Shown here: positions 5,839 to 47,107 of the stretch, piece after piece
Layout of the letters: every line of letters begins with the position of its first letter
How positions within the stretch are numbered: the stretch's first letter is position 1
Source: a virus
Lineage: Duplodnaviria; Caudoviricetes
Direction: 5' to 3' (one strand)
IMG/VR virus record: IMGVR_UViG_3300032294_002517
Location: 1 to 47,107 of that record
Length of the DNA stretch: 47,107 bases
Position numbers and translations under genes: made by a program
The notes under the pieces: generated by a model
The model's database searches: none
The model's input: the letters and a program-made list of their open reading frames with translations, nothing else
What the model was told of the DNA's origin: nothing

Positions 5839-6621
5839 ATGAAAATTTACACCTCATATTACGGCGGAGAACAAATAGGGACTTCCATCTGTATCTCTAT
5901 CACCCAAAAACACGGGTGCAGTTTTCAGGATTTACCTTTATTCAAGCCATCGGACACACTATTTAAGTTTTGGAAAAACTCTAAAAAAGACGCTGAGGCA
6001 GAAAAACATTACACAGATGTGTTCATGGCGAATTTAGCGTCTGAATTTAACGATAAAGCGGTTGATATTTGGCTGCGTAAAGTGGCTAAATCAGGCAGTG
6101 ATGTAACTTTGAACTGTCACGAAATCAAGGGGTTTTGTCACCGTCATTTAGTAGGAAGAATTATCAAATCAAAACGCCCTGAATTATGGGGCGGTGAAAT
6201 TAGCAAAATTCGACAACAACCCGATCAACTAACACTATTCCCGTCCACCCAGGCAACACAAACCAATCTTCCAAATAAACAGACGGAACTGTCCAGACAA
6301 GAAAATCAAGCTGTCCAGATAGCGATCCAACGCCCAACACCCATTGCCTCAAGAAAACTGGAAATACACGAAATGGGATACACTAAGCCCCGTTACACTT
6401 GGGCGGATCAAGGTGCTTTGGCTAAATGGTGGAATCCTCACGGCGAGGAAATTTCGTTTATTAGTAATTTGGAGACTGGGGAAAACAAGTACAACATTCA
6501 CAAAGCTGAAGACATCCCTGATGGTTGGGGCGCAATTTTGGCGTATGGCGGCATACCTATTCCTAAAAATGACTTAATTCTAGTTTTTGACCCTCACAAA
6601 GAAGCAAGGAAGGCAGGTTAA
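5839..6621 (+). CDS. DUF488-like domain protein
   Basis: MKIYTSYY N-terminus and LNCHE..FCHRHLV motif. Confidence 0.7.
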   Translation: MKIYTSYYGGEQIGTSICISITQKHGCSFQDLPLFKPSDTLFKFWKNSKKDAEAEKHYTDVFMANLASEFNDKAVDIWLRKVAKSGSDVTLNCHEIKGFCHRHLVGRIIKSKRPELWGGEISKIRQQPDQLTLFPSTQATQTNLPNKQTELSRQENQAVQIAIQRPTPIASRKLEIHEMGYTKPRYTWADQGALAKWWNPHGEEISFISNLETGENKYNIHKAEDIPDGWGAILAYGGIPIPKNDLILVFDPHKEARKAG

Positions 6622-8669: not shown

Positions 8670-9776
8670 ATGACAAAACATCTTATAAGGCATTACGGAA
8701 AATACATTTATCGTCACGAGGATTACCAGGCAATATGCCAAGGCGATGATTGTGCATCCCAGATACTTAGTCTTTTCGAGTTCTGGACTATTTGTAGGAT
8801 AGAAGAAATCAAGCGAGTAGAAAGCTACAACGAGCAAAACAAAAGGAGTAAAGCGCATCTGTTGCAGACACCAGATTTATGGCTATACGAAACTATGGAA
8901 GATATAAGTGGTGGCATGATTAACGCTTACGGTGATTCTTCTATAAGAAAATCGCTCAAAAAGCTTATTGCATGGGGATTTATTGATTCCCGAAAATCGA
9001 AAAATGATTTTGACAGAACTAAGGAATACAAGTTTAATACTGAGTCAATTCAATCATCACTAGATCAGTGGTGGAACGCTCAAAGCATTGGAAATTCCGA
9101 TCCGGTAAAAACAACGTTCGAGCCGTTAGAAAAAACGTTGGAAACGGTAAAAACAACGTTCGAGCCGTTAAAAAAAACGCACGAGCCGTTGAATTTAACG
9201 TCTGATCTATATTCTCTAAACAGTCTTAATAAACAATCTCTTTTAACAGAGGACGAAGGGAGCGAAATTGAATTAAATCCAAATACCGAAGACCCCAACC
9301 CAGAATTAATCGCTCCGTTGGTAAATAAGCCAGAATCTTCGCAACCAACCGATAACTCAGCCCTGGGGGCAATAATTCCGCCGCCCCGCCCCGCGTCGAG
9401 TCACAACAAAGCGGATGAGCTTTTTACTAACCCACGCGAATTTAACAGCGCAAAAGGAACTTATAAAAGCGCAAGTTCAGATCCTTGGATGTCGTCTGCT
9501 CATAACCCCGATAAAGGCTTTTCTGAGTGGCTATTTTCCAAAAGATATAAAGATAAGCCTTCAGCTACATTAGCCGATGCTAAAGCCGAAATTAGGAACA
9601 GTTGGGAGCGTGCTAGTGACTTATGGGAGGAATACCAATTTGAACTACTTAAAAAACAGCAGCGAGTAGAAATCATTGATCCTGTACCAGATGAACCATA
9701 TAAGCCACAGCAGAAACCAGGGCGCATGACAGAAGAAGCCAGAAACGAATTTATCCAAAAACTTGCATCTAAGTAG
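8670..9776 (+). CDS. phage replication initiator
   Basis: N-terminal wHTH (SIRKSLKKLIAWGFI...DRTKEY), internal iterons, directly upstream of dnaB. Confidence 0.75.
   Translation: MTKHLIRHYGKYIYRHEDYQAICQGDDCASQILSLFEFWTICRIEEIKRVESYNEQNKRSKAHLLQTPDLWLYETMEDISGGMINAYGDSSIRKSLKKLIAWGFIDSRKSKNDFDRTKEYKFNTESIQSSLDQWWNAQSIGNSDPVKTTFEPLEKTLETVKTTFEPLKKTHEPLNLTSDLYSLNSLNKQSLLTEDEGSEIELNPNTEDPNPELIAPLVNKPESSQPTDNSALGAIIPPPRPASSHNKADELFTNPREFNSAKGTYKSASSDPWMSSAHNPDKGFSEWLFSKRYKDKPSATLADAKAEIRNSWERASDLWEEYQFELLKKQQRVEIIDPVPDEPYKPQQKPGRMTEEARNEFIQKLASK
9103..9201 (+). repeat. replication origin iterons, 21-bp period
   Basis: CGGTAAAAACAACGTTCGAGC at 9103 and 9145, with variants at 9124, 9166 and 9187, inside the initiator gene as in lambda O. 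Confidence 0.7.
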
Positions 9777-9784
9777 GGGAATTT

Positions 9785-11116
9785 ATGGCGACAACACAAT
9801 TGCAGCTACCACCTCAAAGCATCGAAGCAGAAGAAGCAATTTTAGGCGGTATCTTATTAGACCCTAATGCGTTAGGGATAGTGTCGGCAATTTTAGAGAA
9901 AGAGGCATTTTACCTCAACACTCACCAAACTATTTACCAAGCATTGCTTGACCTTCATTCACAAAACAAATTAGTTGACAACCGAGAAAATAAACTAATT
10001 TTACTTGCCGACCACTTAAGCAACCAAGAACAATTACAGGACGTGGGGGGGCGAAATAAACTAGCAACACTGGTTGACCGCACAGTTTCCGCAGTCAACA
10101 TTGACGCGATGGCTCGACTGGTAATGGAGAAATATACTAAGCGGCGATTAATTATGGCTGGTAATGCGATCGCTCACGCCGGGCAAGATTCTTGGACTGA
10201 CCCCGACGATGCAATCCAATTTGCAGAAACTCAAATATTTGAGATATCGCAAAAACAGCATGGCGATCGCTACCAGCTTGGTAGTGCTAAAGAAATGGCT
10301 ATTGAACTATTTGACTACCTTGAATCTGGCAAAATGCAAGGGGTGAAAATCGGCTGGTATGACTATGAAAACCTAACTGGCGGATTGCATAAAAGTAAGG
10401 TGAAGCTAATTGGTGGTGAGTCTTACATGGGGAAGTCTCATACAATGCTTGCCGAAGCTTATGGGCTGTTACTTCAGGGATTGCCGGTTCTTTATATCAG
10501 CCCAGAAATGGACAAAAAACAAGTAAATGCCCGAATGCTGGCGATGATTACGGGGATAGATTCAGCAGAATTGCTTGATAACTCCCATAAATATTTAGAT
10601 CAAATAGTTGATGGCATAGACAAACTTTCAGAACTTCCTTGGAAAGTCTACGATCACTCCTCTCCTACAGTTGGAACAATTGCATCAACCGTTAGGCGTG
10701 CGATAACTGAATTTGGTTGTCCGTTAGGCGCAGTTTATATTGATTATTTACAGCAAATACCACTTAGCGGGAAACAACTACTTTCCTATGAAATAGGGCA
10801 GGTAGTGAGAGGAATTAGAGACATTGCAAAATATCATGAAGTGCCGATTATTCTTGGTTCTCAATTGAACCGAGGCAACGCGAACTCTGAGAATAAGCGA
10901 CCTACTAAAGATATGCTCCGAAACTCAGGAGAAATTTACGAAATATGCGATCAAGTAGTGCTACTTTACCGCCCTGGATATTACTCAAAAGATCCATCCG
11001 ATCAAACTATTGAATTGATAGTTGAAAAGAACCGAGTCACGGGTAAATCAGGGACGGCAACCATGTTATGTGATCTCAGAACATCTAAGTTTATGAACTT
11101 GAAAAAGGGGTATTGA
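9785..11116 (+). CDS. dnaB: replicative DNA helicase
   Basis: LPPQSIEAEEAILGGILL, GESYMGKS Walker A, IDYLQ, SQLNR, LRNSGEI, KNR motifs. Confidence 0.95.
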   Translation: MATTQLQLPPQSIEAEEAILGGILLDPNALGIVSAILEKEAFYLNTHQTIYQALLDLHSQNKLVDNRENKLILLADHLSNQEQLQDVGGRNKLATLVDRTVSAVNIDAMARLVMEKYTKRRLIMAGNAIAHAGQDSWTDPDDAIQFAETQIFEISQKQHGDRYQLGSAKEMAIELFDYLESGKMQGVKIGWYDYENLTGGLHKSKVKLIGGESYMGKSHTMLAEAYGLLLQGLPVLYISPEMDKKQVNARMLAMITGIDSAELLDNSHKYLDQIVDGIDKLSELPWKVYDHSSPTVGTIASTVRRAITEFGCPLGAVYIDYLQQIPLSGKQLLSYEIGQVVRGIRDIAKYHEVPIILGSQLNRGNANSENKRPTKDMLRNSGEIYEICDQVVLLYRPGYYSKDPSDQTIELIVEKNRVTGKSGTATMLCDLRTSKFMNLKKGY

Positions 11117-25981: not shown

Positions 25982-26141
25982 CGACATTAATTTGCGAAAA
26001 CTCAGAATCATTAAATTGACTCCAAAAAACAGCAACCGCGACATTAATCTGCGAATAACGACATTAATCTGCGAATAACGACATTAATCTGCGAATAACG
26101 ACATTAATCTGCGAAATGCGACATTAATCTGCGAACGTACA
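25982..26141. mobile_element. solitary V-K CAST (Tn7-like) transposon end
   Basis: six CGACATTAAT(C/T)TGCGAA TnsB-type sites, five of them at 20-bp period, ending in GTACA (TGTAC terminus on the minus strand). Confidence 0.85.
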
Positions 26142-30509: not shown

Positions 30510-30582
30510 TCCTGGATGCAGGAATTGAACCTGCTTGTGCCATATTATGAGTATGGTGCTTAAACCAATCAGCCAATCCAGG
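30510..30582 (-). tRNA. tRNA with CAU anticodon, probably Ile2 (lysidine)
   Basis: complete cloverleaf CCTGGAT/ATCCAGG, CCATA-CTCATAA-TATGG, GCAGG-TTCAATT-CCTGC; resembles cyanobacterial/plastid trnI-CAU. Confidence 0.9.
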
Positions 30583-31731: not shown

Positions 31732-32007
31732 TTATTTATCCGATTCCTCAATTAACTTAGACACAAATTCTGAGCGATCGCCCGTCGGGACTTTTTGCAG
31801 TTTCTCGTAAGCAGACGGACTTATACTAAATGCAACTTTATATGTTGCCGATTCTGCTTTTGGCGGTCTACCACCTAAGTTTTTCCTGTAATATTGGTTG
31901 AGGCAACCTTGACAAGTTACCTCTTCAATATTGCTTGATAGGCGCGGGGAAAAGCCTTGATTACTACAAGACTGTTTCCCTGAATAGTGGATTTTATTGG
32001 TTGGCAT
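31732..32007 (-). CDS. small ribbon-helix-helix-like DNA-binding protein
   Basis: GGRPPK followed by VAFSISPSAYEKL...RSEFVSKLIEE. Confidence 0.65.
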   Translation of the reverse strand: MPTNKIHYSGKQSCSNQGFSPRLSSNIEEVTCQGCLNQYYRKNLGGRPPKAESATYKVAFSISPSAYEKLQKVPTGDRSEFVSKLIEESDK

Positions 32008-32730: not shown

Positions 32731-32866
32731 AGTTTTGTAGTTTTTCGTAAGCAGACGGGCCTATGCTAAATGCAACTTTATATGTTGCCGATTTTGCTTT
32801 TGGAGGTCTACCACCTAAGTTTTTCCGGTGGTATTGGTTTAGGCAACCTTGACAAGTTACCTCTTT

Positions 32867-32896
32867 ACTATAACTAAACTATTACCAGTTTGTCAA
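32867..32896 (-). promoter_or_regulatory. promoter of the minus-strand small-gene operon
   Basis: TTGACA-AACTGGTAATAGTTTAGT-TATAGT. Confidence 0.6.
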
Positions 32897-32971: not shown

Positions 32972-33283
32972 TTGCCCCCTACGCAGTCGGCATCTAAACC
33001 CGAAAACGCAAAGCACCCCACAATAAAACCACTAGAAGTAATGAAGCGGTTAGTAGAAATGCTTACTCCTGAAGGTGGTACGGTTTTAGACCCCTTCTGT
33101 GGTAGTAGTACAACTGCCGTAGCCTGTAAAGAACTTGGCAGAAATTACATCTGTATTGAGAAAGAATTGGAATATTATCAAATAGCTTGTCAGCGCATAA
33201 GCCAACCTATTGAACCGGAAAAAGAAGTAATTCCGGTAGTTGAGGAATTGCCAAAAGTTAAGCAGTTGTCATTGTTTGGGTAG
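32972..33283 (+). pseudogene. C-terminal fragment of a beta-class N4/N6 DNA methyltransferase
   Basis: HPTIKP...VLDPFCGS..T..AC..LGR motifs without the DPPY half; ends QLSLFG. Confidence 0.85.
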
Positions 33284-33397: not shown

Positions 33398-34066
33398 ATG
33401 ACTACTATAACATCATCCGGCTTTTTTACGCAAGTCTTAGGCGAAGTTTCTCACCCAATTAATATAGTGAGAGAATATTTAGAGGCATTCGGCAATAAAT
33501 GTAAAGCTTCTATCTTGACTTGGCTTGATTCATGGACACGCACAAAAATAGCACAGGGCAAGGATACATGGATTTGGGAGAGTCAACGCTCCTTAGCAGA
33601 AAAAATAGGGTACAACAAATCAACAGTCAATACCCATTTAAACGAGTTGATTGACGAGGGATTTATTGAAGTATCCCTACAATCGCCAAATAGTTGCTCA
33701 CGTCTGCTTAAATACAGATTAAGAATTGACAACTTATCTGTATTCCTTAGTCAGTCAGGGTTTTCGCCATTAAGTCGGAATTCCGTACATGGTAAAACGG
33801 AAGCCCGGACAACGGAAGCCGGAAAACCGGACACTAACTTAAATCATTCTCTTAATTCAAATATTCCTAATTCAAATGATAAATACAACAACAGTGATGA
33901 TGTACCAAGCGAGTGTAATCTGGATTTAGAGGAATTAAGAGAAGAGAAGCCTACAGATATCTCGTTTGTTGAAAAACCAAAACTAAAATCTTCCACTCCA
34001 CAGATAACCCCTCATGAGGGCGATAATTGCGCGGCGCGGCGCGCAACACAACAAATCCAGACGTAG
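33398..34066 (+). CDS. second wHTH replication-initiator-like protein (N-terminal part)
   Basis: SQRSLAEKIGYNKSTVNTHLNELIDEGFI; short ACGGAAGCC repeats near 33795-33830. Confidence 0.65.
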   Translation: MTTITSSGFFTQVLGEVSHPINIVREYLEAFGNKCKASILTWLDSWTRTKIAQGKDTWIWESQRSLAEKIGYNKSTVNTHLNELIDEGFIEVSLQSPNSCSRLLKYRLRIDNLSVFLSQSGFSPLSRNSVHGKTEARTTEAGKPDTNLNHSLNSNIPNSNDKYNNSDDVPSECNLDLEELREEKPTDISFVEKPKLKSSTPQITPHEGDNCAARRATQQIQT

Positions 34067-34512
34067 AAATAAATATGCAATTAGTAGCGAGTTTAGGCGT
34101 TACATTGAACCCTAGGCTAAAACGGTTTCTAGCGTGCGTAACGGCAGAGGAAGTATTGAAAGGTCTTGCCGCTTACTACTACACCCTAGAGATTAAGCAG
34201 ACGGGCGTTGAAAGCATACCTGGATTTATCATTGATTCCATCAGAAATAACTACATCGAAGACACGAAGATGTGGATGGATTCTACCGAACCAACCCGGA
34301 AATTTATCCTACTAGCGGCTGGTGCGATGGGTATGGGGATGTCTTTGGACGGTGGATTTCTGATGGCAATGGATACAGGTAAATTAGTAGTTGTCGGGGA
34401 AAACAGCGATCGCTCATCGTTCCATCTTGACAGAATAATTGAATTGCTAGACAAAGCAGGTTACGCGGAAACATTGAAGATAATGTTGGATAGCTACCGC
34501 AATTTAACTTAA
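34027..34512 (+). CDS. probable C-terminal part of the same initiator (frameshifted) or a separate hypothetical protein
   Basis: overlapping frame; SIPGFIIDSIRNNY replication-protein-like motif. Confidence 0.5.
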   Translation: MRGAARNTTNPDVEINMQLVASLGVTLNPRLKRFLACVTAEEVLKGLAAYYYTLEIKQTGVESIPGFIIDSIRNNYIEDTKMWMDSTEPTRKFILLAAGAMGMGMSLDGGFLMAMDTGKLVVVGENSDRSSFHLDRIIELLDKAGYAETLKIMLDSYRNLT

Positions 34513-34642: not shown

Positions 34643-35158
34643 ATGAACAACAATTATGGAATGCCTCAAACACGAGACAAATGTTATGGTATGTCCGCTT
34701 GCCTTACTTACTGGGCTTTTAAATGCCGTGACAGAAAACGCAGCCCAGCGATGGGTGCTAAAACATGGACTTACTTGGAATCCAGTATCAGAAATTCGGC
34801 GGAAATATCAACTAATTTAGAGGATTATTTGCAGCGACTTTGTGATAAACTTTGTTCACAATTACGCCCAGTTGAATTAACAAAAATAATTCAACCTACT
34901 CAAAGAATCCTGCGAGTAAATGAAGACGCTACGGAAATTAAAGAACTTCCCATTGACCAAAATCTTGTATTTATGGGATGGTTGGATTTAATTGCTGACA
35001 TTCAACCACACGGATTTACAGAGTGGGATGTACTTGAATTATTGCGAACTAAAGCAGGAATCATTCAAGTAATTTGCAGGTTACGATTCGAGGAAGATCG
35101 TAGTTTAGGGTTGGATGAGCCAGAGGAATTTATAGAAGTTGAGGTGACAAATGTTTGA
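34643..35158 (+). CDS. cas11: type IV-B small subunit (Cas11-like)
   Basis: helical 171-aa protein overlapping csf2; assignment mainly by synteny. Confidence 0.6.
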   Translation: MNNNYGMPQTRDKCYGMSACLTYWAFKCRDRKRSPAMGAKTWTYLESSIRNSAEISTNLEDYLQRLCDKLCSQLRPVELTKIIQPTQRILRVNEDATEIKELPIDQNLVFMGWLDLIADIQPHGFTEWDVLELLRTKAGIIQVICRLRFEEDRSLGLDEPEEFIEVEVTNV

Positions 35159-36281
35159 TAATTACAATGTTTTTGACCGTGAAAGATTGACTCTACATTG
35201 TGTGATTACAGCACAAACACCCTTATCACATATTGGGGAAGTGTCGGGAAATGTGAGCAACTTAAAAACACTAAAGTTACTTGATTTTGAAGGCAATCCT
35301 AGAAGTGTTTTCACCTATTCTGGTAATGCCTTGAGAAATGGATTGTTGCGGCGTGTTGGTGTGGCTGCGGCGTTAACTGAATTAGGGTTGCAAGTGAATC
35401 CTGATACACACCATACAATGTTTGCGGGTGGCAGAATTGATGCGGGTACAGCTTCAGACATGGAGCTTGACAAAAAGATCCGGGTTTTAATGCCTTGGCT
35501 GTCGGTTCTGGGGACTGCTAAACCTGCCAAAGTTTTCGGCTCTAAAGACGCTCAAATGGTGCAAGGCAGAATCAATGTAGGCTCTGCTTATTTGGCTTGC
35601 TATGAGTCAGCAGAATACATCTACAACCAGATACCAGCGATACTACCACCGGAAATACAACCAGCTATTCAGAAGCTAATTGAAGCTAAAAATAGATTAT
35701 CTTCAGACCCTTTTATCCCTACAAAGTCTGAGGACTTAGATAACTGGAATCAGGCAAAAAATGATTATTTGCCTTTAATTAGAAAGGTGATGAAAACTTG
35801 GACTGAGTATTTGACGATTGATCAAACTACTCGCAGGGATGCAACTTTAGACCCCAATTTAATTAAATTTCTGCCCACAGAGGTTCAGGCGCAATTAAAA
35901 GGCGACGGCACGGCTAAAGAGAAAAAATCAGATCAGATGATTGCTTCTGATAGATTAATTATGCCAGGAGCAAAACTATACTCAAGATGGGACTTGAACT
36001 GCACCAAAGTCGAACAAGGTTGGATTTTTGATACTTTGTTAAAATTTGCACAGTTCCCATATTTGGGCGGTAAAGGCAATCGTGGCAATGGTCGCGTTAG
36101 CATAAATTTCTGGTTTAGTTCCGAGTCAGAACGCGGATTATTGTGGAGCTCTGAAAGTGGTGTAGAGAGCGATAGATTCAATCTTGCACACGCTAAATAC
36201 AGGGAGTATATCAGTCAATATCAACAGTTTTTAGGTGAGGCTAGAACATCAACTGAATTAAGGAGTTTGTTAGGTGGATAA
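35151..36281 (+). CDS. csf2: type IV Cas7-like backbone protein Csf2
   Basis: ITAQTPLSH, YSGNALR..LRR, MFAGG, P.LSVLG and terminal G-rich loop YLGGKGNRGNG. Confidence 0.9.
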   Translation: MFDNYNVFDRERLTLHCVITAQTPLSHIGEVSGNVSNLKTLKLLDFEGNPRSVFTYSGNALRNGLLRRVGVAAALTELGLQVNPDTHHTMFAGGRIDAGTASDMELDKKIRVLMPWLSVLGTAKPAKVFGSKDAQMVQGRINVGSAYLACYESAEYIYNQIPAILPPEIQPAIQKLIEAKNRLSSDPFIPTKSEDLDNWNQAKNDYLPLIRKVMKTWTEYLTIDQTTRRDATLDPNLIKFLPTEVQAQLKGDGTAKEKKSDQMIASDRLIMPGAKLYSRWDLNCTKVEQGWIFDTLLKFAQFPYLGGKGNRGNGRVSINFWFSSESERGLLWSSESGVESDRFNLAHAKYREYISQYQQFLGEARTSTELRSLLGG

Positions 36282-36963
36282 CTTAAAAATAACGGCACAT
36301 TTAGCAACATCTTTAGGAGCTTATGATAACTGGAGTCCGTCGCTAGAAGGTATTTTGGTGTATAGGCTTTTAGAAGAAAATAGTCTGCTTTCACCTAATC
36401 CCACGCCGGATCAAGTAGCAGAAACCAAAGAGTTTATTGAGCAGAATTTACCACTAAAGCAAGGTGTCATTAAGTCAGAGAAATATTGGTGCGTGAGTTC
36501 ACCTTGCTATGTTTTGCAGGGTGAAGCTACAGACAAATATAGAAAACGATGGGATAATCACGAAAACAATTTAGACTGGGGTAAGCGCAAACCTAAGTTT
36601 TTAACAGGTGAAGGTGCGGAAAAATCCTATGATTTACCGCTTTACACAAGGTCAATCAACTCTATTTCTTGGTTTGCTGTGGGCGATAAAACGGCAATCA
36701 AAAATCTTTTGTCGTCTGTTACTCACATTCAGAAAAAGCGTAGTTACGGCAATGGTGAAGTCAGGGAATGGGAAATAGGGATAATTTACGATGATTATCA
36801 TCTGTGGCGTGATAATAAATTAATGCGTCCTATTCCTGTTAGATTAATTGATCGAAAAATAGATAATCCTCAGATGGTTTGGGGATGGAGAAGCCCCGCT
36901 TGGTTGGCAGCAAATAAAGAATTGTGCTATATGCCAAAGGATAGCGTGATTTATGCTAAGTAA
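36274..36963 (+). CDS. csf3: type IV Cas5-like protein Csf3
   Basis: LKITAHL, WFAVGD..I..LL..VTHIQKKRSYGNGEV, LMRPIP, GWRSPAW. Confidence 0.88.
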   Translation: MDNLKITAHLATSLGAYDNWSPSLEGILVYRLLEENSLLSPNPTPDQVAETKEFIEQNLPLKQGVIKSEKYWCVSSPCYVLQGEATDKYRKRWDNHENNLDWGKRKPKFLTGEGAEKSYDLPLYTRSINSISWFAVGDKTAIKNLLSSVTHIQKKRSYGNGEVREWEIGIIYDDYHLWRDNKLMRPIPVRLIDRKIDNPQMVWGWRSPAWLAANKELCYMPKDSVIYAK

Positions 36964-37699
36964 CGGATCTGGCGTTCAATATCCCTGGTTAAAAAAGAAA
37001 ATAATCAGGGCAAAAGACTCAATTAAAATCTGGCTAGAACAATGCAATCATCAAGTGTATGCGAGTGTTTCTGGCGGTAAAGATAGCCTAGTGATGTCTC
37101 ATTTAATCAGGCAGGTTTACCCAGATTGTCCTTTGGTATGGGTAAATCAGGGATTGCTTGCCGAATGGGATGATTGCGTTGAGCTTTTAGAGTATTTAAA
37201 AACTCAAAACTGGAATATTATTGAACTTTGCCCAGTACGTGATTTATGGCATTTATACCTTGATTATGGCGTTCCACTTGAAGGAACAATGGATACAAAA
37301 GCCGACAAATTAATTAATCAAAAATTAATTTATGACCCGCTTAATGAATACCAAGAATTAAATAATATCAAGGGTTATGCGTGGGGTATTCGTAAGCAAG
37401 AAAGCAGGAATAGGGCATTTTACCTTAATAAATATGGTGAAGTGCATACCCTTAAAAATGGGTTGATTTGTTGTTCACCTGTGGCATTTTGGACTACTCA
37501 AAATATTTGGGAATACATTGATATGTACTCGTTAAAATATCCTGCCATTTATGATGTTGATAGAATGACAGTTAGGAATGGATGCCCAATCGGCACAACA
37601 GGTGCTAATTGGGGAAGACTGGCAGAATTAAGAAAGCATTATCCAGGTATTTATAATCAATTCGTTGTTAAATTCCCGCAAATATCAACCTATGTCTAA
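36953..37699 (+). CDS. cysH: CysH-like PAPS-reductase-fold protein of type IV-B
   Basis: SVSGGKDS PP-loop, GIRKQES..R, P..FWT..IWEYI. Confidence 0.9.
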   Translation: MLSNGSGVQYPWLKKKIIRAKDSIKIWLEQCNHQVYASVSGGKDSLVMSHLIRQVYPDCPLVWVNQGLLAEWDDCVELLEYLKTQNWNIIELCPVRDLWHLYLDYGVPLEGTMDTKADKLINQKLIYDPLNEYQELNNIKGYAWGIRKQESRNRAFYLNKYGEVHTLKNGLICCSPVAFWTTQNIWEYIDMYSLKYPAIYDVDRMTVRNGCPIGTTGANWGRLAELRKHYPGIYNQFVVKFPQISTYV

Positions 37700-38444
37700 C
37701 TGCTACCTGTGCGCTAAACCCGGTTCTAATCCCTTGGAATTATCCAGCACCTTCACAATGCACTCATCAGCTAAATGTCCAGATTCTAAGGTGTTGTGCG
37801 ATCGCTGTTACTCTACTATTTCTGGTAATCAAAAGCAGCTTTGGTACTGGAATGAGGGTAAGAATAAATGGTCTAAATTGTGGGGGCGTTCTTTGTCCAG
37901 GGTGTATCAGGGTGATAAATTAATTGCACCAATAATTGAAGGGGAGTACACAGAAGGTAAAGATACTTTTTCAATAGTTAAAAACTTAATGACCAGGGTA
38001 GAAATTAGAGAATATTTGTTGAATCCCCCTGAACCACCATTTACTATCGCTATAGCTGAATCAGGGCAAAAACATATTATTCCTTGGGCGTTAGAAGCGC
38101 AAAGCCGGGATCTATTCCCTGCGCAATTTGAGCTTGATACTGTTTATATTGATGATAGATTTAGAGGGTTTTTGCAAGTATATGAGCAATTGATGGGGTT
38201 AGGATTTAGTAAAACTGAGATTGATTCAGGGGATTATCGAAGCGATAGATTGATGAAAGTTTTTGATAAATACTGGGAACTTGAGGATCGTATATCGGGT
38301 ATTAGGGGGACTAGATTAATGCAATTGATAAGTTATATCGCTCAATCACAGGATGTGCCACCAATTGCGGAAATAGTAGAAATTCCTGTAATCCCTGCCC
38401 AATCAAAAGTACCTAAAAAGCCATTGCAATTATCTTTGTTTTAA
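37692..38444 (+). CDS. csf1: type IV large subunit Csf1 (Cas8-like)
   Basis: CYLC...LCDRC zinc finger and PPEPPF..AIAESGQKHII motif; ends in QLSLF. Confidence 0.85.
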   Translation: MSNCYLCAKPGSNPLELSSTFTMHSSAKCPDSKVLCDRCYSTISGNQKQLWYWNEGKNKWSKLWGRSLSRVYQGDKLIAPIIEGEYTEGKDTFSIVKNLMTRVEIREYLLNPPEPPFTIAIAESGQKHIIPWALEAQSRDLFPAQFELDTVYIDDRFRGFLQVYEQLMGLGFSKTEIDSGDYRSDRLMKVFDKYWELEDRISGIRGTRLMQLISYIAQSQDVPPIAEIVEIPVIPAQSKVPKKPLQLSLF

Positions 38445-41929: not shown

Positions 41930-42673
41930 TCACCCCGTCTCCTTGGACGGGGTTTTGTTTTGAGCTAAGAATGTATTGAGTATTTTTAGTAACTCTAAAA
42001 CAGCGTCACCAGATATTTGATCACGGTTTGATAATTGCAATAGTTCACGCCCCAATAATTCGTGATTTAATTCAACTAAATTAACGACTACAGGGTGCTT
42101 TGACTTCAGTATTAATGCTTTATTGATAGCGTCAAATTTCCAGTACAGCGACACATCTATTAGTATTGAATCCTTCTGAAAACTCAAAACTAATGATTGT
42201 GTAATGTACCATGCGCTACAATCATTAGTTTTGATTTTTCCGTCGTTATCTTCAATCAGAGTAACTAGATTGGGCTTCAGTTCTTCTAATTCCTGTTCTA
42301 GTGATTTCTGAATCATCTTTATCTCTTTATACCGTGCGAGATATTGGCTTTTGTCGTAGCCTAAATCAATAATAGGTGATTCAGAGTCAACATCATTATT
42401 GTTTAGCGGTGGGTTGAATTTCTGGATGTATTCATGTTCCCATTCCTCTAAATCATCTAAGTCATTCCACGTCAAATAACTGATGTATTGCACGTTGTTG
42501 ATGATAAGATCGCTTGTATCGTGGTGTTTAAATACATCTTGTAAACTGGATGAAATGCCGATATACCAGACACGATATGCAGCATCACAGGCGAAATAAA
42601 TGCCGGGTGAGTCAGGTAAATTATGAGCGTTATTTAGTGTGACTTTAGCGAGTTTCTTGATTGTTAGGTTCAT
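41930..42673 (-). CDS. GIY-YIG domain protein, possibly chimeric
   Basis: LPDSPGIYF...WYIG...E.EYIQKFNPPLN; expected catalytic Arg not evident. Confidence 0.75.
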   Translation of the reverse strand: MNLTIKKLAKVTLNNAHNLPDSPGIYFACDAAYRVWYIGISSSLQDVFKHHDTSDLIINNVQYISYLTWNDLDDLEEWEHEYIQKFNPPLNNNDVDSESPIIDLGYDKSQYLARYKEIKMIQKSLEQELEELKPNLVTLIEDNDGKIKTNDCSAWYITQSLVLSFQKDSILIDVSLYWKFDAINKALILKSKHPVVVNLVELNHELLGRELLQLSNRDQISGDAVLELLKILNTFLAQNKTPSKETG

Positions 42674-43018
42674 TGGCTTTGAGTGTGATTTTGTTGTTTT
42701 ATTCTTGATTTAATAAAGTCTCGCAATTCTATCTCTACCGCGCCATTATTTATTGCTAATTGCCTTTTAGATGGCGTTAGATCGTAGTGGGGAAATTGAT
42801 GCGCTTTCCGTTGATTATTCTGAAAATAAGATTGTTTTAACCCTATTTTTTGAGCCATTTCATGCAGTTCGGTCAAGTCACTAGAATCCGTGAAAAGATG
42901 ACACCACTGATTGCCATGCTTTTGCGCTTGGCGTGTTTTTGGTGTCATTGTAAAAGGCTATCTACGTATACTGTCATAGCGTGACTTCAGCGAGTTTCTT
43001 GATTGTTAGGTTCATTGG
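42639..43018. repeat. 38-bp direct repeat (42639-42676 and 42981-43018) flanking the DUF4031 gene
   Basis: one mismatch; equals the first codons of the GIY-YIG gene. Confidence 0.9.
42670..42948 (-). CDS. DUF4031 family protein
   Basis: WCHL..D...ELHEMA..IGL...FQ...PHYDL...R..AI..GA. Confidence 0.85.
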   Translation of the reverse strand: MTPKTRQAQKHGNQWCHLFTDSSDLTELHEMAQKIGLKQSYFQNNQRKAHQFPHYDLTPSKRQLAINNGAVEIELRDFIKSRIKQQNHTQSQ

Positions 43019-43019
43019 T

Positions 43020-43361
43020 TTAGTGTGCCACAAATAACATAACTCTGTTCTTTTCTGGGCTGATATTACAAGCTGCTAAAGTTCTATTCCCCCAAACTAG
43101 AAGCAATCCTAGCGGGAATTTATCAGCAATATCTGGTGTAATAATTTCTGCACTGTTAGCCGCTTTAGCAAATTCTATTACTTGTTGGTGAGATATAGAA
43201 TCAGTTGATAATGTATCTCCTGATTGGGTATCATGGTGTATTTGGATAGCGCGATCTCCTATCAAGTACAACCATCCAAATACAGATATTTTAGACATAA
43301 GCTCTGAGTGGAATAACCAATCATCAAGCCTTTTTTGGTTTTCGGTTCTTTGATCATTCAT
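43020..43361 (-). CDS. hypothetical protein
   Basis: AGGA RBS; 113 aa. Confidence 0.55.
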   Translation of the reverse strand: MNDQRTENQKRLDDWLFHSELMSKISVFGWLYLIGDRAIQIHHDTQSGDTLSTDSISHQQVIEFAKAANSAEIITPDIADKFPLGLLLVWGNRTLAACNISPEKNRVMLFVAH

Positions 43362-44240: not shown

Positions 44241-44466
44241 AACAAAGTAACCCGCCTTTATCGGGTGAAAAACTAACCATTGGAACCACCGGAATACCGC
44301 AAATATTCCTGCGTGGTATGGTTTCAATAATTATATCATTGTTTCGATACTCTTATTAATTCTTCAATAACTTAGGATACAATATTATCCAGTCGCGTGA
44401 TGGTGTTGGTAGCACCGATTCACCACTGGCTGTAGGTCTTGTACACCCACATTGATATTATTCCCA

Positions 44467-46383
44467 ATGAAAACTATTAAAATCAAGGTCAAACTTTTTG
44501 CTGAACAGGCGCAATCATGCGATCGCTACCTAGAAGAATTGACATGGCTATGGAATCAGGTATTGGCTAATCAATTGCATAACCATTGCATCACCTGGTA
44601 CAACTGGGCTGGTAAGTTGAGCGCAGATTTAGCTAAGGCGACGGAAAAGTTAGAGAAGCTAAAACCGGAACAACAGCAGCTTGTTAGGAACTACTACCGC
44701 AGCAAAGACAAGCCAAAACTCAACAAAAAAGAACAGGAATTAGTTGCCAAATTTGATATATTTTCCCGGTGGTTGCCGTTTGACTTAGAAAATATTATTC
44801 CCGTACCTTTGCGAGTTGGCAACAGTGGCTACGAGGGCTTATCGTGCCAGATTGCTACAGGCGGAAGTTACTGGAAACGGGACGATAATTTTAATATTCC
44901 AATCAAAACCAAAAAGGGGATTATTCACGTCAAAGGGTCTAAATTGGTTAAGGGTGATTGCCCCTGGAAACGAATACAAATAACGCCGCATAATTATAAA
45001 ACTTTTCCCAGTGGTAAGTTTGAGGGGAGGGAATTAATAGATGTGATGAAGTTTGATAATTTGAACGGACTAAACGGGCTGAGAGCGATGCAGAATCTAC
45101 CTGATTTATCCGTTTCCTCGCACTACGTTGGAGGCTTGTTAGAGTTTTTTAAACAGTCATGGTTAGCGTTTTTAGACCCCAAAAGGGTGAATAGCAGGAA
45201 ACCAAAGTTCAAAAAAGACGCTGATAAAATTACCACCTTGTCGAATAATCAGTGTGCGCCAAATAAGATAGACGTGGCGAATGATTGGATTGATATTACT
45301 GGGTTCAATAAGTTGATTGTTGCTGACAAGAACTGGGTTAAAAGATTAAACATAGACGAGGTTCTACCCAGGACGTATATGCTCACGAAAAAGACATCAG
45401 GGTATTACATAAATATCGTCGTTGCTCATCCATTACAAGAAGAAAAAGCAGCTTTAACAAAGAAATTACTCAAGGTCAAAAAAGAGTTTGGCGAAGATAG
45501 TCAAGAGTACGAAGATACTAAGTCTAAAATCAAATTTATTGAACAACAAATCAAAGATTCATCAATTACACAAGGTAAGAATTTAAGCGCAGGGATTGAC
45601 CCTGGGGTACAGGCTACTGTGGCGACGGATCATGGGGCGCTGTTTCTCCCAAATCTAAGCAGGGAGCGCGTGTCAATCCATATCGAGGAACTACAATCAA
45701 AGCTTGATAATCTTGAGTTAATTAATGATAAAAAGTGGAAAGATTCAGGGCGCAAAGGTACTCGACCTAAGACAAAAAACGAGATTAAGATACAAGATAA
45801 AATTACCAGATTGCATGAACGTGGTGCTAATTCTTCTAATGCCTTTAATCATAAAATGTCAACTAGATTAAGCAGGACTTACGAGCATATAGCATGGGAA
45901 GATACCCAGCTAACTAATCTTCTGAAACAAACAGAAGCTAAAGCATTACCTGAAGGCGTGGGATATGCTCACAATGGTGCGTCTGCTAAACGGGGTTTAA
46001 ATTGGATTATGAGACAAAGATGCTTAGGTGATTTAAAAACTAAAACTAAGCAAAAAGTTGAGAATAGAGGCGGTAGTTTTCATGAACCACCTGCTAACTA
46101 CAGTTCTCAATTGTGCCATTGTTGTCATCAAAAAGGTGAACGATTATCACAGTATGAGTTTATCTGCAAAAACTCTGATTGTGAGTTATTTGAACAGGTG
46201 CAACAAGCTGACACTAATGCTGCTAGAAACCACAAACATAATAGTAGTTTTGAGCTAGGAGAAGTCAAATATCACAACACTAGATTAATCTATCAGAAAC
46301 CCAAAAGATTTAAAAAGAAACGCTTGACAAAGCAGATGGTTTTAGTTAATATTAATTTACCGCAGTTTGGACGGGATGACTAA
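44467..46383 (+). CDS. c2c8: type V TnpB-derived CRISPR effector, C2c8 (V-U2)-like
   Basis: TnpB-type N-terminus, RuvC GIDPG / WED / ADTNAA, CHCC..C zinc finger, about 638 aa, adjacent to an array, no cas1/cas2 in the window. Confidence 0.75.
   Translation: MKTIKIKVKLFAEQAQSCDRYLEELTWLWNQVLANQLHNHCITWYNWAGKLSADLAKATEKLEKLKPEQQQLVRNYYRSKDKPKLNKKEQELVAKFDIFSRWLPFDLENIIPVPLRVGNSGYEGLSCQIATGGSYWKRDDNFNIPIKTKKGIIHVKGSKLVKGDCPWKRIQITPHNYKTFPSGKFEGRELIDVMKFDNLNGLNGLRAMQNLPDLSVSSHYVGGLLEFFKQSWLAFLDPKRVNSRKPKFKKDADKITTLSNNQCAPNKIDVANDWIDITGFNKLIVADKNWVKRLNIDEVLPRTYMLTKKTSGYYINIVVAHPLQEEKAALTKKLLKVKKEFGEDSQEYEDTKSKIKFIEQQIKDSSITQGKNLSAGIDPGVQATVATDHGALFLPNLSRERVSIHIEELQSKLDNLELINDKKWKDSGRKGTRPKTKNEIKIQDKITRLHERGANSSNAFNHKMSTRLSRTYEHIAWEDTQLTNLLKQTEAKALPEGVGYAHNGASAKRGLNWIMRQRCLGDLKTKTKQKVENRGGSFHEPPANYSSQLCHCCHQKGERLSQYEFICKNSDCELFEQVQQADTNAARNHKHNSSFELGEVKYHNTRLIYQKPKRFKKKRLTKQMVLVNINLPQFGRDD
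46324..46352 (+). promoter_or_regulatory. promoter for the tracrRNA, inside the effector 3' end
   Basis: TTGACA-17-TAATAT. Confidence 0.7.
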
Positions 46384-46697: not shown

Positions 46698-47107
46698 ATT
46701 GCAAGGCGGCTAATCCCTTTTAAGGGACTGAAACTTATCACTCATGATGTATTGCAGTTTATAGAGTTATTATTGCAAGGCGGCTAATCCCTTTTAAGGG
46801 ACTGAAACTAGCGCGTTATGCTGATAGTTTGAGTATTTCTCTGATATTGCAAGGCGGCTAATCCCTTTTAAGGGACTGAAACTCAGAGTCAGATAACTTA
46901 TTTATAATATAGCTTAGTATTGCAAGGCGGCTAATCCCTTTTAAGGGACTGAAACTTGTAAGGTTGATAATTTTTCAATCATTCTCTTATTTATTGCAAG
47001 GCGGCTAATCCCTTTTAAGGGACTGAAACCATAACCGCCAAATTCATCATCATCATTTGGCATATTGATTATTGCAAGGCGGCTAATCCCTTTTAAGGGA
47101 CTGAAAC
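46698..47107 (+). CRISPR. CRISPR array, 6 repeats and 5 spacers, cut by the window end
   Basis: ATTGCAAGGCGGCTAATCCCTTTTAAGGGACTGAAAC (37 bp) at 46698, 46772, 46846, 46919, 46993, 47071; spacers 37, 37, 36, 37, 41 nt. Confidence 0.99.

Follow-up and report, generated by a model that had tools for sequence, protein, structure and literature searches.

Among described type IV-B systems, the closest to the one presented here is the Csf complex of Mycobacterium sp. JS623 (PDB 7JHY; PMC7937560, PMC7038947, PMC8175902). A filament of Csf2 and Cas11 on RNA has been shown for JS623 only (PMC7937560), prophage-borne type IV-B cases have already been reported (PMC7937560, PMC7038947, PMC8175902), and AMPylation, not phosphorothioation, has been proposed for the IV-B CysH (PMC8175902). 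Reviews from 2024-2025 continue to list type IV-B as a system of unknown function (PMC11656645, PMC12669027). Here we describe a type IV-B operon on a tailed-phage contig (Duplodnaviria; Caudoviricetes; IMG/VR record IMGVR_UViG_3300032294_002517, positions 1 to 47,107; this whole stretch of 47,107 nucleotides is called the window), in which the large subunit Csf1 ends in a five-residue motif, QLSLF, that probably docks the complex on the DNA sliding clamp.

The initial annotation, made by a model from the sequence alone, had proposed five overlapping genes in the order cas11-csf2-csf3-cysH-csf1, with a Pro-rich linker and QLSLF at the end of Csf1. Open reading frames (ORFs), PADLOC and Pfam place the five genes where it had put them, with successive overlaps of 8, 8, 11 and 8 nt, and the Csf1 ending is as it described:

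34643-35158, plus strand: cas11, type IV small subunit, 171 aa (PADLOC typeIV_Cas11, E 1e-5)
35151-36281, plus strand: csf2, Cas7 backbone, 376 aa (PADLOC Csf2_0_IV, E 2e-36)
36274-36963, plus strand: csf3 (Cas5), 229 aa, GTG start (PADLOC Csf3_0_IV, E 1e-42)
36953-37699, plus strand: cysH-like PP-loop protein, 248 aa, with an SGGKDS loop (Pfam PF01507, PAPS_reduct, E 4e-15)
37692-38444, plus strand: csf1, Cas8-like large subunit, 250 aa, folded core at residues 1-218 (PADLOC Csf1_0_IV, E 9e-22)
38346-38426, plus strand: Csf1 tail linker, variable, Pro-rich and predicted disordered (coil; AlphaFold2 predicted local distance difference test, pLDDT, 54-58)
38427-38441, plus strand: QLSLF, the beta-clamp-binding consensus, at the extreme C-terminus with the stop directly after (from sequence)

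The locus is a real type IV-B gene set of known kind, with the csf1/csf2/csf3 core, cas11, and a linked cysH-like gene overlapping csf3 and csf1, and with no DinG/RecD helicase, Cas6 or array of its own at the operon (the contig may be incomplete). The top PDB sequence match of the csf2 clade profile is the IV-B structure 7JHY (E 6e-6); the NCBIfam Csf models TIGR03114-6 match, but under their curated cut-offs, and a sequence search found no relative of Csf1 among solved structures. The predicted lack of cas6 and dinG was confirmed by a Pfam scan of 54 window ORFs, which found neither family, and by two local Cas6 profiles, which gave nothing against the window in six frames. The operon is array-less as described, but the phage as a whole is not: a C2c8-like type V gene with a CRISPR array beside it, both passed over in the initial annotation, lies 8.3 kb downstream. 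In a by-eye comparison, nine close loci diverge upstream of cas11 beyond the ribosome-binding region, with no conserved non-coding RNA or mini-array 5' of the gene. With JS623 the locus shares csf1, cas11, csf2, csf3 and a cysH-like gene, the location on a mobile element, and the lack of DinG, Cas6 and an own array. It differs in being carried by a probable cyanobacterial phage with csf1 last in the operon, in having a clamp-motif tail on Csf1, which JS623 and the other actinobacterial loci inspected lack, and in the swapping of CysH subtypes between close phages.

The Csf1 tail consists of 32 residues, 6 of them Pro, and follows a confidently predicted core (averages of residue blocks in the AlphaFold2 model are mostly 88-98 as far as residue 220 and 77-78 at residues 11-30). 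QLSLF has been shown, in another protein, to bind the clamps of three species, the consensus being Q-L-x-L-F (PMC4549789). The tail has the sequence features of a beta-clamp client, namely a Q-L-x-L-F peptide and a flexible terminus in which the motif is conserved while the linker is not. It resembles the clients IS1634 transposase (PMC4549789), MuC, TnsE and TrfA (10.1101/2025.01.04.631326) in the consensus pentapeptide, the flexible terminus, the mobile-element origin of the protein and the repeated gain, and differs from them in that the putative client is a Cas8-like subunit of a class 1 ribonucleoprotein (RNP).

Among near homologues (the best 120 of 251 Csf1 matches, query included), the motif, defined after inspection of the data as Q-x-x-[LIMF]-[FW] or Q-[LMI]-x-[LIM]-[FWL], lies within the last 17 residues of 40/42 proteins with a tail of at least 20 residues (22 being exactly QLSLF) and of 0/78 short ones. 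The mean pairwise identity among 39 tailed homologues is 0.13 in the linker and 0.78 in the motif. Representatives at 50% identity (the best 150 of 902 from a profile search, 143 being kept after removal of one repeat protein, five proteins with incomplete cores and one Csf1-Cas11 fusion) carry the motif on 44 of 61 long tails versus 1 of 82 short ends. At the level of loci, 178 distinct Csf1 were reduced to 147 non-redundant ones, with nine left out whose core end was unaligned (six of them actinobacterial, which were inspected by eye); here the motif is terminal in 56/86 long tails versus 0/61 short ends, and the stricter pattern Q-[LMI]-x-[LIM]-[FWL] alone accounts for 49/86. The background rate is low (cas11 2/127, csf2 0/128, csf3 1/130, cysH 0/119, other frames 12/1686). 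Judged from these alignments, the Csf1 motif is under selection, being kept while the linker drifts and near-absent on the other subunits, and the clamp tether proposed in the initial annotation survives the check on homologues. Relocation of the motif to another subunit in tail-less bacterial loci was rejected, since just 2/127 Cas11 carry it; a tail-less Csf1 together with a bacterial motif on Cas11 was found only in loci L251 (3477-3947, QLELF) and L142 (2277-2666, QERLF; L numbers denote collected loci).

Distant phages in which csf1 stands before cas11 have the tail overprinted on the neighbouring gene: the Csf1 frame enters cas11 by 50-370 nt, in one or the other shifted frame and with differing offsets, and mostly terminates shortly past the motif. 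Overprinted tails end in the motif in 41 of 68 loci, versus 0.16 expected when Cas11 is recoded synonymously with the codon usage of each locus (two further loci were without an overlap start). A Cas11 [VI]NSLC segment is able to spell the motif in a shifted frame. In one clade the Csf1 frame is constant and the Cas11 residues beneath its motif are highly variable, and in another Cas11 has [NS][ST][LIA]C in 23/26 motif-bearing loci versus 2/18 others (a few segments being mis-picked by the pattern). A quick tree gives 10 changes for the free-tail state and 21 for the overprinted state, with gains and losses inseparable and long branches unreliable. Independent origins are therefore argued not from the tree but from the differing frames and offsets: the tail occurs free, in two frames and at four or more offsets, a diversity that appears hard to derive from a single event. 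An apparent Csf1-Cas11 fusion (P0212, 423 aa) ends in an A-D-L-F string.

A different tag is found on archaeal-type Cas11. The Thermococcus nautili plasmid encodes csf1-cas11-csf2-csf3-cysH with a tail-less Csf1 and a Cas11 terminating in S-L-S-E-F-V, of which L-x-x-F is kept by 10/10 close homologues (one labelled Methanocaldococcus), and a haloarchaeal plasmid Cas11 terminates in K-L-T-D-F-I. An L-x-x-F-[IVL]-like terminal tag is present in 30 of 48 archaeal-type Cas11 homologues (19/19 haloarchaeal and the 10 Thermococcus close homologues) versus 2/244 internal windows, the 48 comprising 45 from a search with a profile that included the tails, plus earlier ones, and archaeal names standing on just three of the records. 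The tag is absent from the remaining 126 Cas11 of the locus set. Its hydrophobic-x-x-aromatic core after a variable linker is shared with the C-terminal PCNA-interacting protein (PIP) boxes of the archaeal PCNA clients NucS and NreA (PMC4929162), but it sits on the small subunit, not on Csf1, and lacks the canonical Gln and second aromatic, so that the full PIP consensus QxxhxxAA (PMC4929162) is not reached and the tag is PIP-like only. On the Thermococcus plasmid, the product of the gene that follows cysH (L246, 6268-6891) has a PIP-like terminal string too.

The enzyme that the complex would carry is less constant than its scaffold. SxGKDS is found in 108/114 CysH homologues and a G-x-R-x-x-E-S-x-x-R segment is almost invariant, while the alignment of these 114 shows no conserved catalytic cysteine: the C-terminal-region Cys212 is retained in 11/114, and the top Cys column (81/114) lies within a core C-P-x-x-x-W segment. 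The window protein shares the PP-loop fold with DndC, SspD and PAPS reductase (weak matches), and no Dnd/Ssp partner genes were seen in the operon. For want of a conserved catalytic cysteine, a point already made in PMC8175902, the analogy with DndC in the initial annotation does not extend to the chemistry, and DndC-type phosphorothioation was rejected. SGGxDS PP-loop enzymes adenylate their substrates. In four loci (L010, L011, L080, L083) Csf2 is 78-85% identical to that of the window, whereas CysH is merely 29-30% identical; by these values, CysH is exchanged on a constant scaffold between close phages. The second CysH subtype is accompanied in the operon by a 230-aa protein (L010 9296-9988, L011 9252-9944, L083 7294-7983, L052 4764-5531) with an HDxxH...E motif and no PHROG match, which is Coq4-like by language-model features (0.88, a lead only). 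Loci L030, L069 and L152 have several csf3, csf1 and cysH paralogues per single cas11-csf2 pair, with Csf1 tailed or tail-less, an arrangement that suggests interchangeable heads on one backbone.

Other genes inside IV-B operons are enriched in modification functions, with best matches to glucosyltransferases, DNA methylases or TGT in 9/60 genes versus 1/60 flanking genes drawn at random from 218 (p 0.017, a value that ignores relatedness). The gene swapping and these neighbouring modification genes give only indirect support to a CysH-dependent DNA modification. Further genes inside some operons are Cas6, SpoU, GNAT, ParB and regulators; where Cas6 is inside the operon (L181, L201, L212, L214-L216, L052, L118), no array was detected. 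A beta-clamp gene begins 3 nt past csf1 in L102 (8673-9827), a phage-like or viral contig, and in one further group of phages (L227/L228/L245, 617-1988) another is located no more than 4.5 kb upstream of csf2, a proximity given without a background rate.

The best explanation overall, to which we assign a probability of roughly 0.42, is that, through a clamp-docked Csf set, the CysH-like enzyme reaches newly replicated DNA and there makes a protective chemical modification. The Csf1 tail would keep the Csf filament attached to clamps of the host, located at the forks on phage DNA or behind them, and the clamps remaining on fresh DNA would serve as the address. CysH would associate with the Csf complex and adenylate a substrate at the clamp site, most plausibly as a base-modification step that protects the genome; the substrate may be a DNA base, to which co-encoded glycosyl- or methyltransferases would at times add further groups. 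The tail would make the process more efficient without being required. Taken on its own, delivery of a DNA-modifying CysH by the clamp-docked complex is a tentative proposal. A broader reading, which we hold to be doubtful, is that type IV-B is a clamp-riding RNP carried by viruses and plasmids of bacteria and archaea alike, with a tag matched to the host clamp and exchangeable adenylating enzymes delivered to newly replicated DNA, possibly RNA-guided, and thus a replication-coupled DNA-modifying machine derived from Cascade and not an immunity system. The tag would be QLxLF on Csf1 in bacteria, often overprinting cas11, and PIP-like on Cas11 in archaea, and would have evolved repeatedly.

Several observations weigh against replication-coupled delivery. 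The tail is missing in 78/120 near homologues and 82/143 representatives; tail-less L083 and tailed L088 are 98% identical across 173 residues; and where bacterial Csf1 is tail-less, the motif is rarely on any other subunit. No clear motif was found in the eight actinobacterial plasmid or phage loci inspected (L061/L072, L248-L250, L252-L255; JS623 system included), and two haloarchaeal plasmids out of three are likewise without one. In the archaeal tags the canonical Gln is replaced, the second aromatic is missing and the last position is aliphatic; a third archaeal-type Cas11 group has the tag in 1/17, two other haloarchaeal plasmids and virus L256 are without it, and similar terminal strings end 5/91 ORFs in 59 kb of the Thermococcus plasmid. 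The window operon holds no extra modification gene, and the loci are akin to one another, so that the counts are not independent events. Because the tail is absent in most homologues, including one of the 98%-identical pair, and in all actinobacterial loci inspected, docking appears to be accessory: on this distribution the tail is a gain and not the defining function.

An RNA-guided interference system docked on the clamp is an unlikely alternative, in which guides would be supplied in trans (host CRISPR RNAs, crRNAs, or the phage type V array), the clamp would find replicating rivals or host DNA, and CysH would mark or block the target. The array in question and its gene are:

44452-46383, plus strand: C2c8/Cas12u2-like type V gene (NF038192, 178 bits against a cut-off of 350; PADLOC Cas12u2, E 3e-53)
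46698-47107, plus strand: CRISPR array of six 37-nt repeats, adjoining the type V gene and cut by the window end (from the repeats)

Csf1, Csf3 and Csf2 are all retained, as guided interference would have it, and as many as eight loci have a Cas6 gene within the operon. Several close relatives carry C2c8-like genes with arrays no more than 10 kb from csf1 (in L007 directly behind it, in L096 near it), and TnsE of Tn7 is a known clamp-binding target finder (10.1101/2025.01.04.631326). The close relatives have one or two C2c8-like genes and differing 37-nt repeats in arrays of up to 27 repeats, and L001 matches the window in the operon and first three spacers and then diverges. Against guided interference, the arrays stand beside the type V genes and are essentially confined to the cyanophage clade, and few crRNAs were bound by the JS623 Csf complex (PMC7937560). 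The 74 spacers of the window and close relatives have no full match among the collected loci, the set that was searched (one 25-nt partial), and nothing was found there to tie the type V array to IV-B.

Quite unlikely is a counter-defence role, in which the complex would be a sponge for crRNAs or small RNAs, or an enzyme that AMPylates RNA or protein, and the clamp tag would just concentrate the complex at phage replication sites. Published hypotheses (PMC8175902), heterogeneous RNA binding (PMC7937560), the dispensable tail and the SpoU-family RNA methylases inside some operons agree with such a role, which leaves unexplained the repeated, costly overprinting on cas11 and the presence within operons of genes for glucosyltransferases and DNA methylases. 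More distinctly improbable is the use of the clamp for gene or replication control, by coupling late transcription to replication or by sequestering host clamps in the manner of MuC. In phage Mu, late transcription depends on the clamp motif of the C protein, whose overexpression depletes clamps (10.1101/2025.01.04.631326), and sigma-region-4 and helix-turn-helix genes occur inside some IV-B operons, but control of this kind gives no role to a near-obligate CysH or to its swapping. It is very improbable that the motif is a side product, whether of read-through into cas11 or as a sticky ending of a common kind, or that its partner is not a clamp: the Cas11 [VI]NSLC coding, the phage methylases that also end in the motif and the often missing tails would allow it, but the recoding null (41 observed), the 12/1686 background, the overlap-free tails in the window's clade, the exact consensus and the archaeal-style counterpart all argue against it.

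The preferred reading, delivery to newly replicated DNA, places the complex on the clamps of the host. The window encodes a terminase, DnaB and a replication initiator, and no polymerase or clamp gene was found among the window ORFs scanned, which is consistent with use of the host replisome. The host is likely a cyanobacterium, because the octamer GCGATCGC, which we take to be HIP1, has 26 copies in the window versus 0.3 expected from base composition, and because the window encodes a SigF-like sigma factor of cyanobacterial kind. There are two distinct replication-initiator-like genes, at 33398-34512 and 8670-11116, one adjoining DnaB and the other just upstream of the IV-B operon. The initial annotation had pointed to a methylase fragment with the same ending as Csf1, and this was upheld:

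32972-33283, plus strand: truncated N6/N4 DNA methylase ending in QLSLF (Pfam PF01555)

Its terminus reads QLSLF-G-stop (QLSLF at 33263-33277), and it aligns with residues 189-284 only of a full-length relative, the C-terminal third being kept in the window. Full-length relatives in L006-L010 terminate in QLSLF as well; the QLSLF-ended N6/N4 methylases of this phage group lie at L006 8819-9673, L007 1319-2260, L008 4128-4985 and L010 3383-4756. A third clamp-type motif of the phage is an internal QLTLF (6226-6240) in a DUF488-N3 family protein (5839-6621). Elsewhere in the window, direct repeats flank small gene cassettes (31793-31931 / 32733-32871 and 42635-42685 / 42977-43027), a tandem repeat with a 20-nt unit occupies 26034-26138, and a tRNA gene (30510-30582, minus strand) is the sole Rfam match.

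Literature searches (subscription journals and supplements not covered) found neither a clamp-binding Cas8-like class 1 subunit nor a Csf1 clamp-binding tail in print, and no report of a PCNA-box-like tag on archaeal-type Cas11. The sole match for sliding clamp, QLSLF and phage together concerns transposases, and the word 'clamp' is absent from PMC8175902 and PMC7937560. A single mention of a sliding clamp occurs in PMC11551745. This analysis adds to the initial annotation the archaeal-style tag, the exchange of CysH and the cargo of the operons.

That the tag probably changes from a bacterial to an archaeal clamp type independently supports the clamp as the partner. The overprinted tails offer a clean case of a functional motif born in a second reading frame, with the underlying protein reshaped. 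For type IV-B itself, with a host partner that can be named and five residues that can serve as a handle, the function becomes open to simple experiments.

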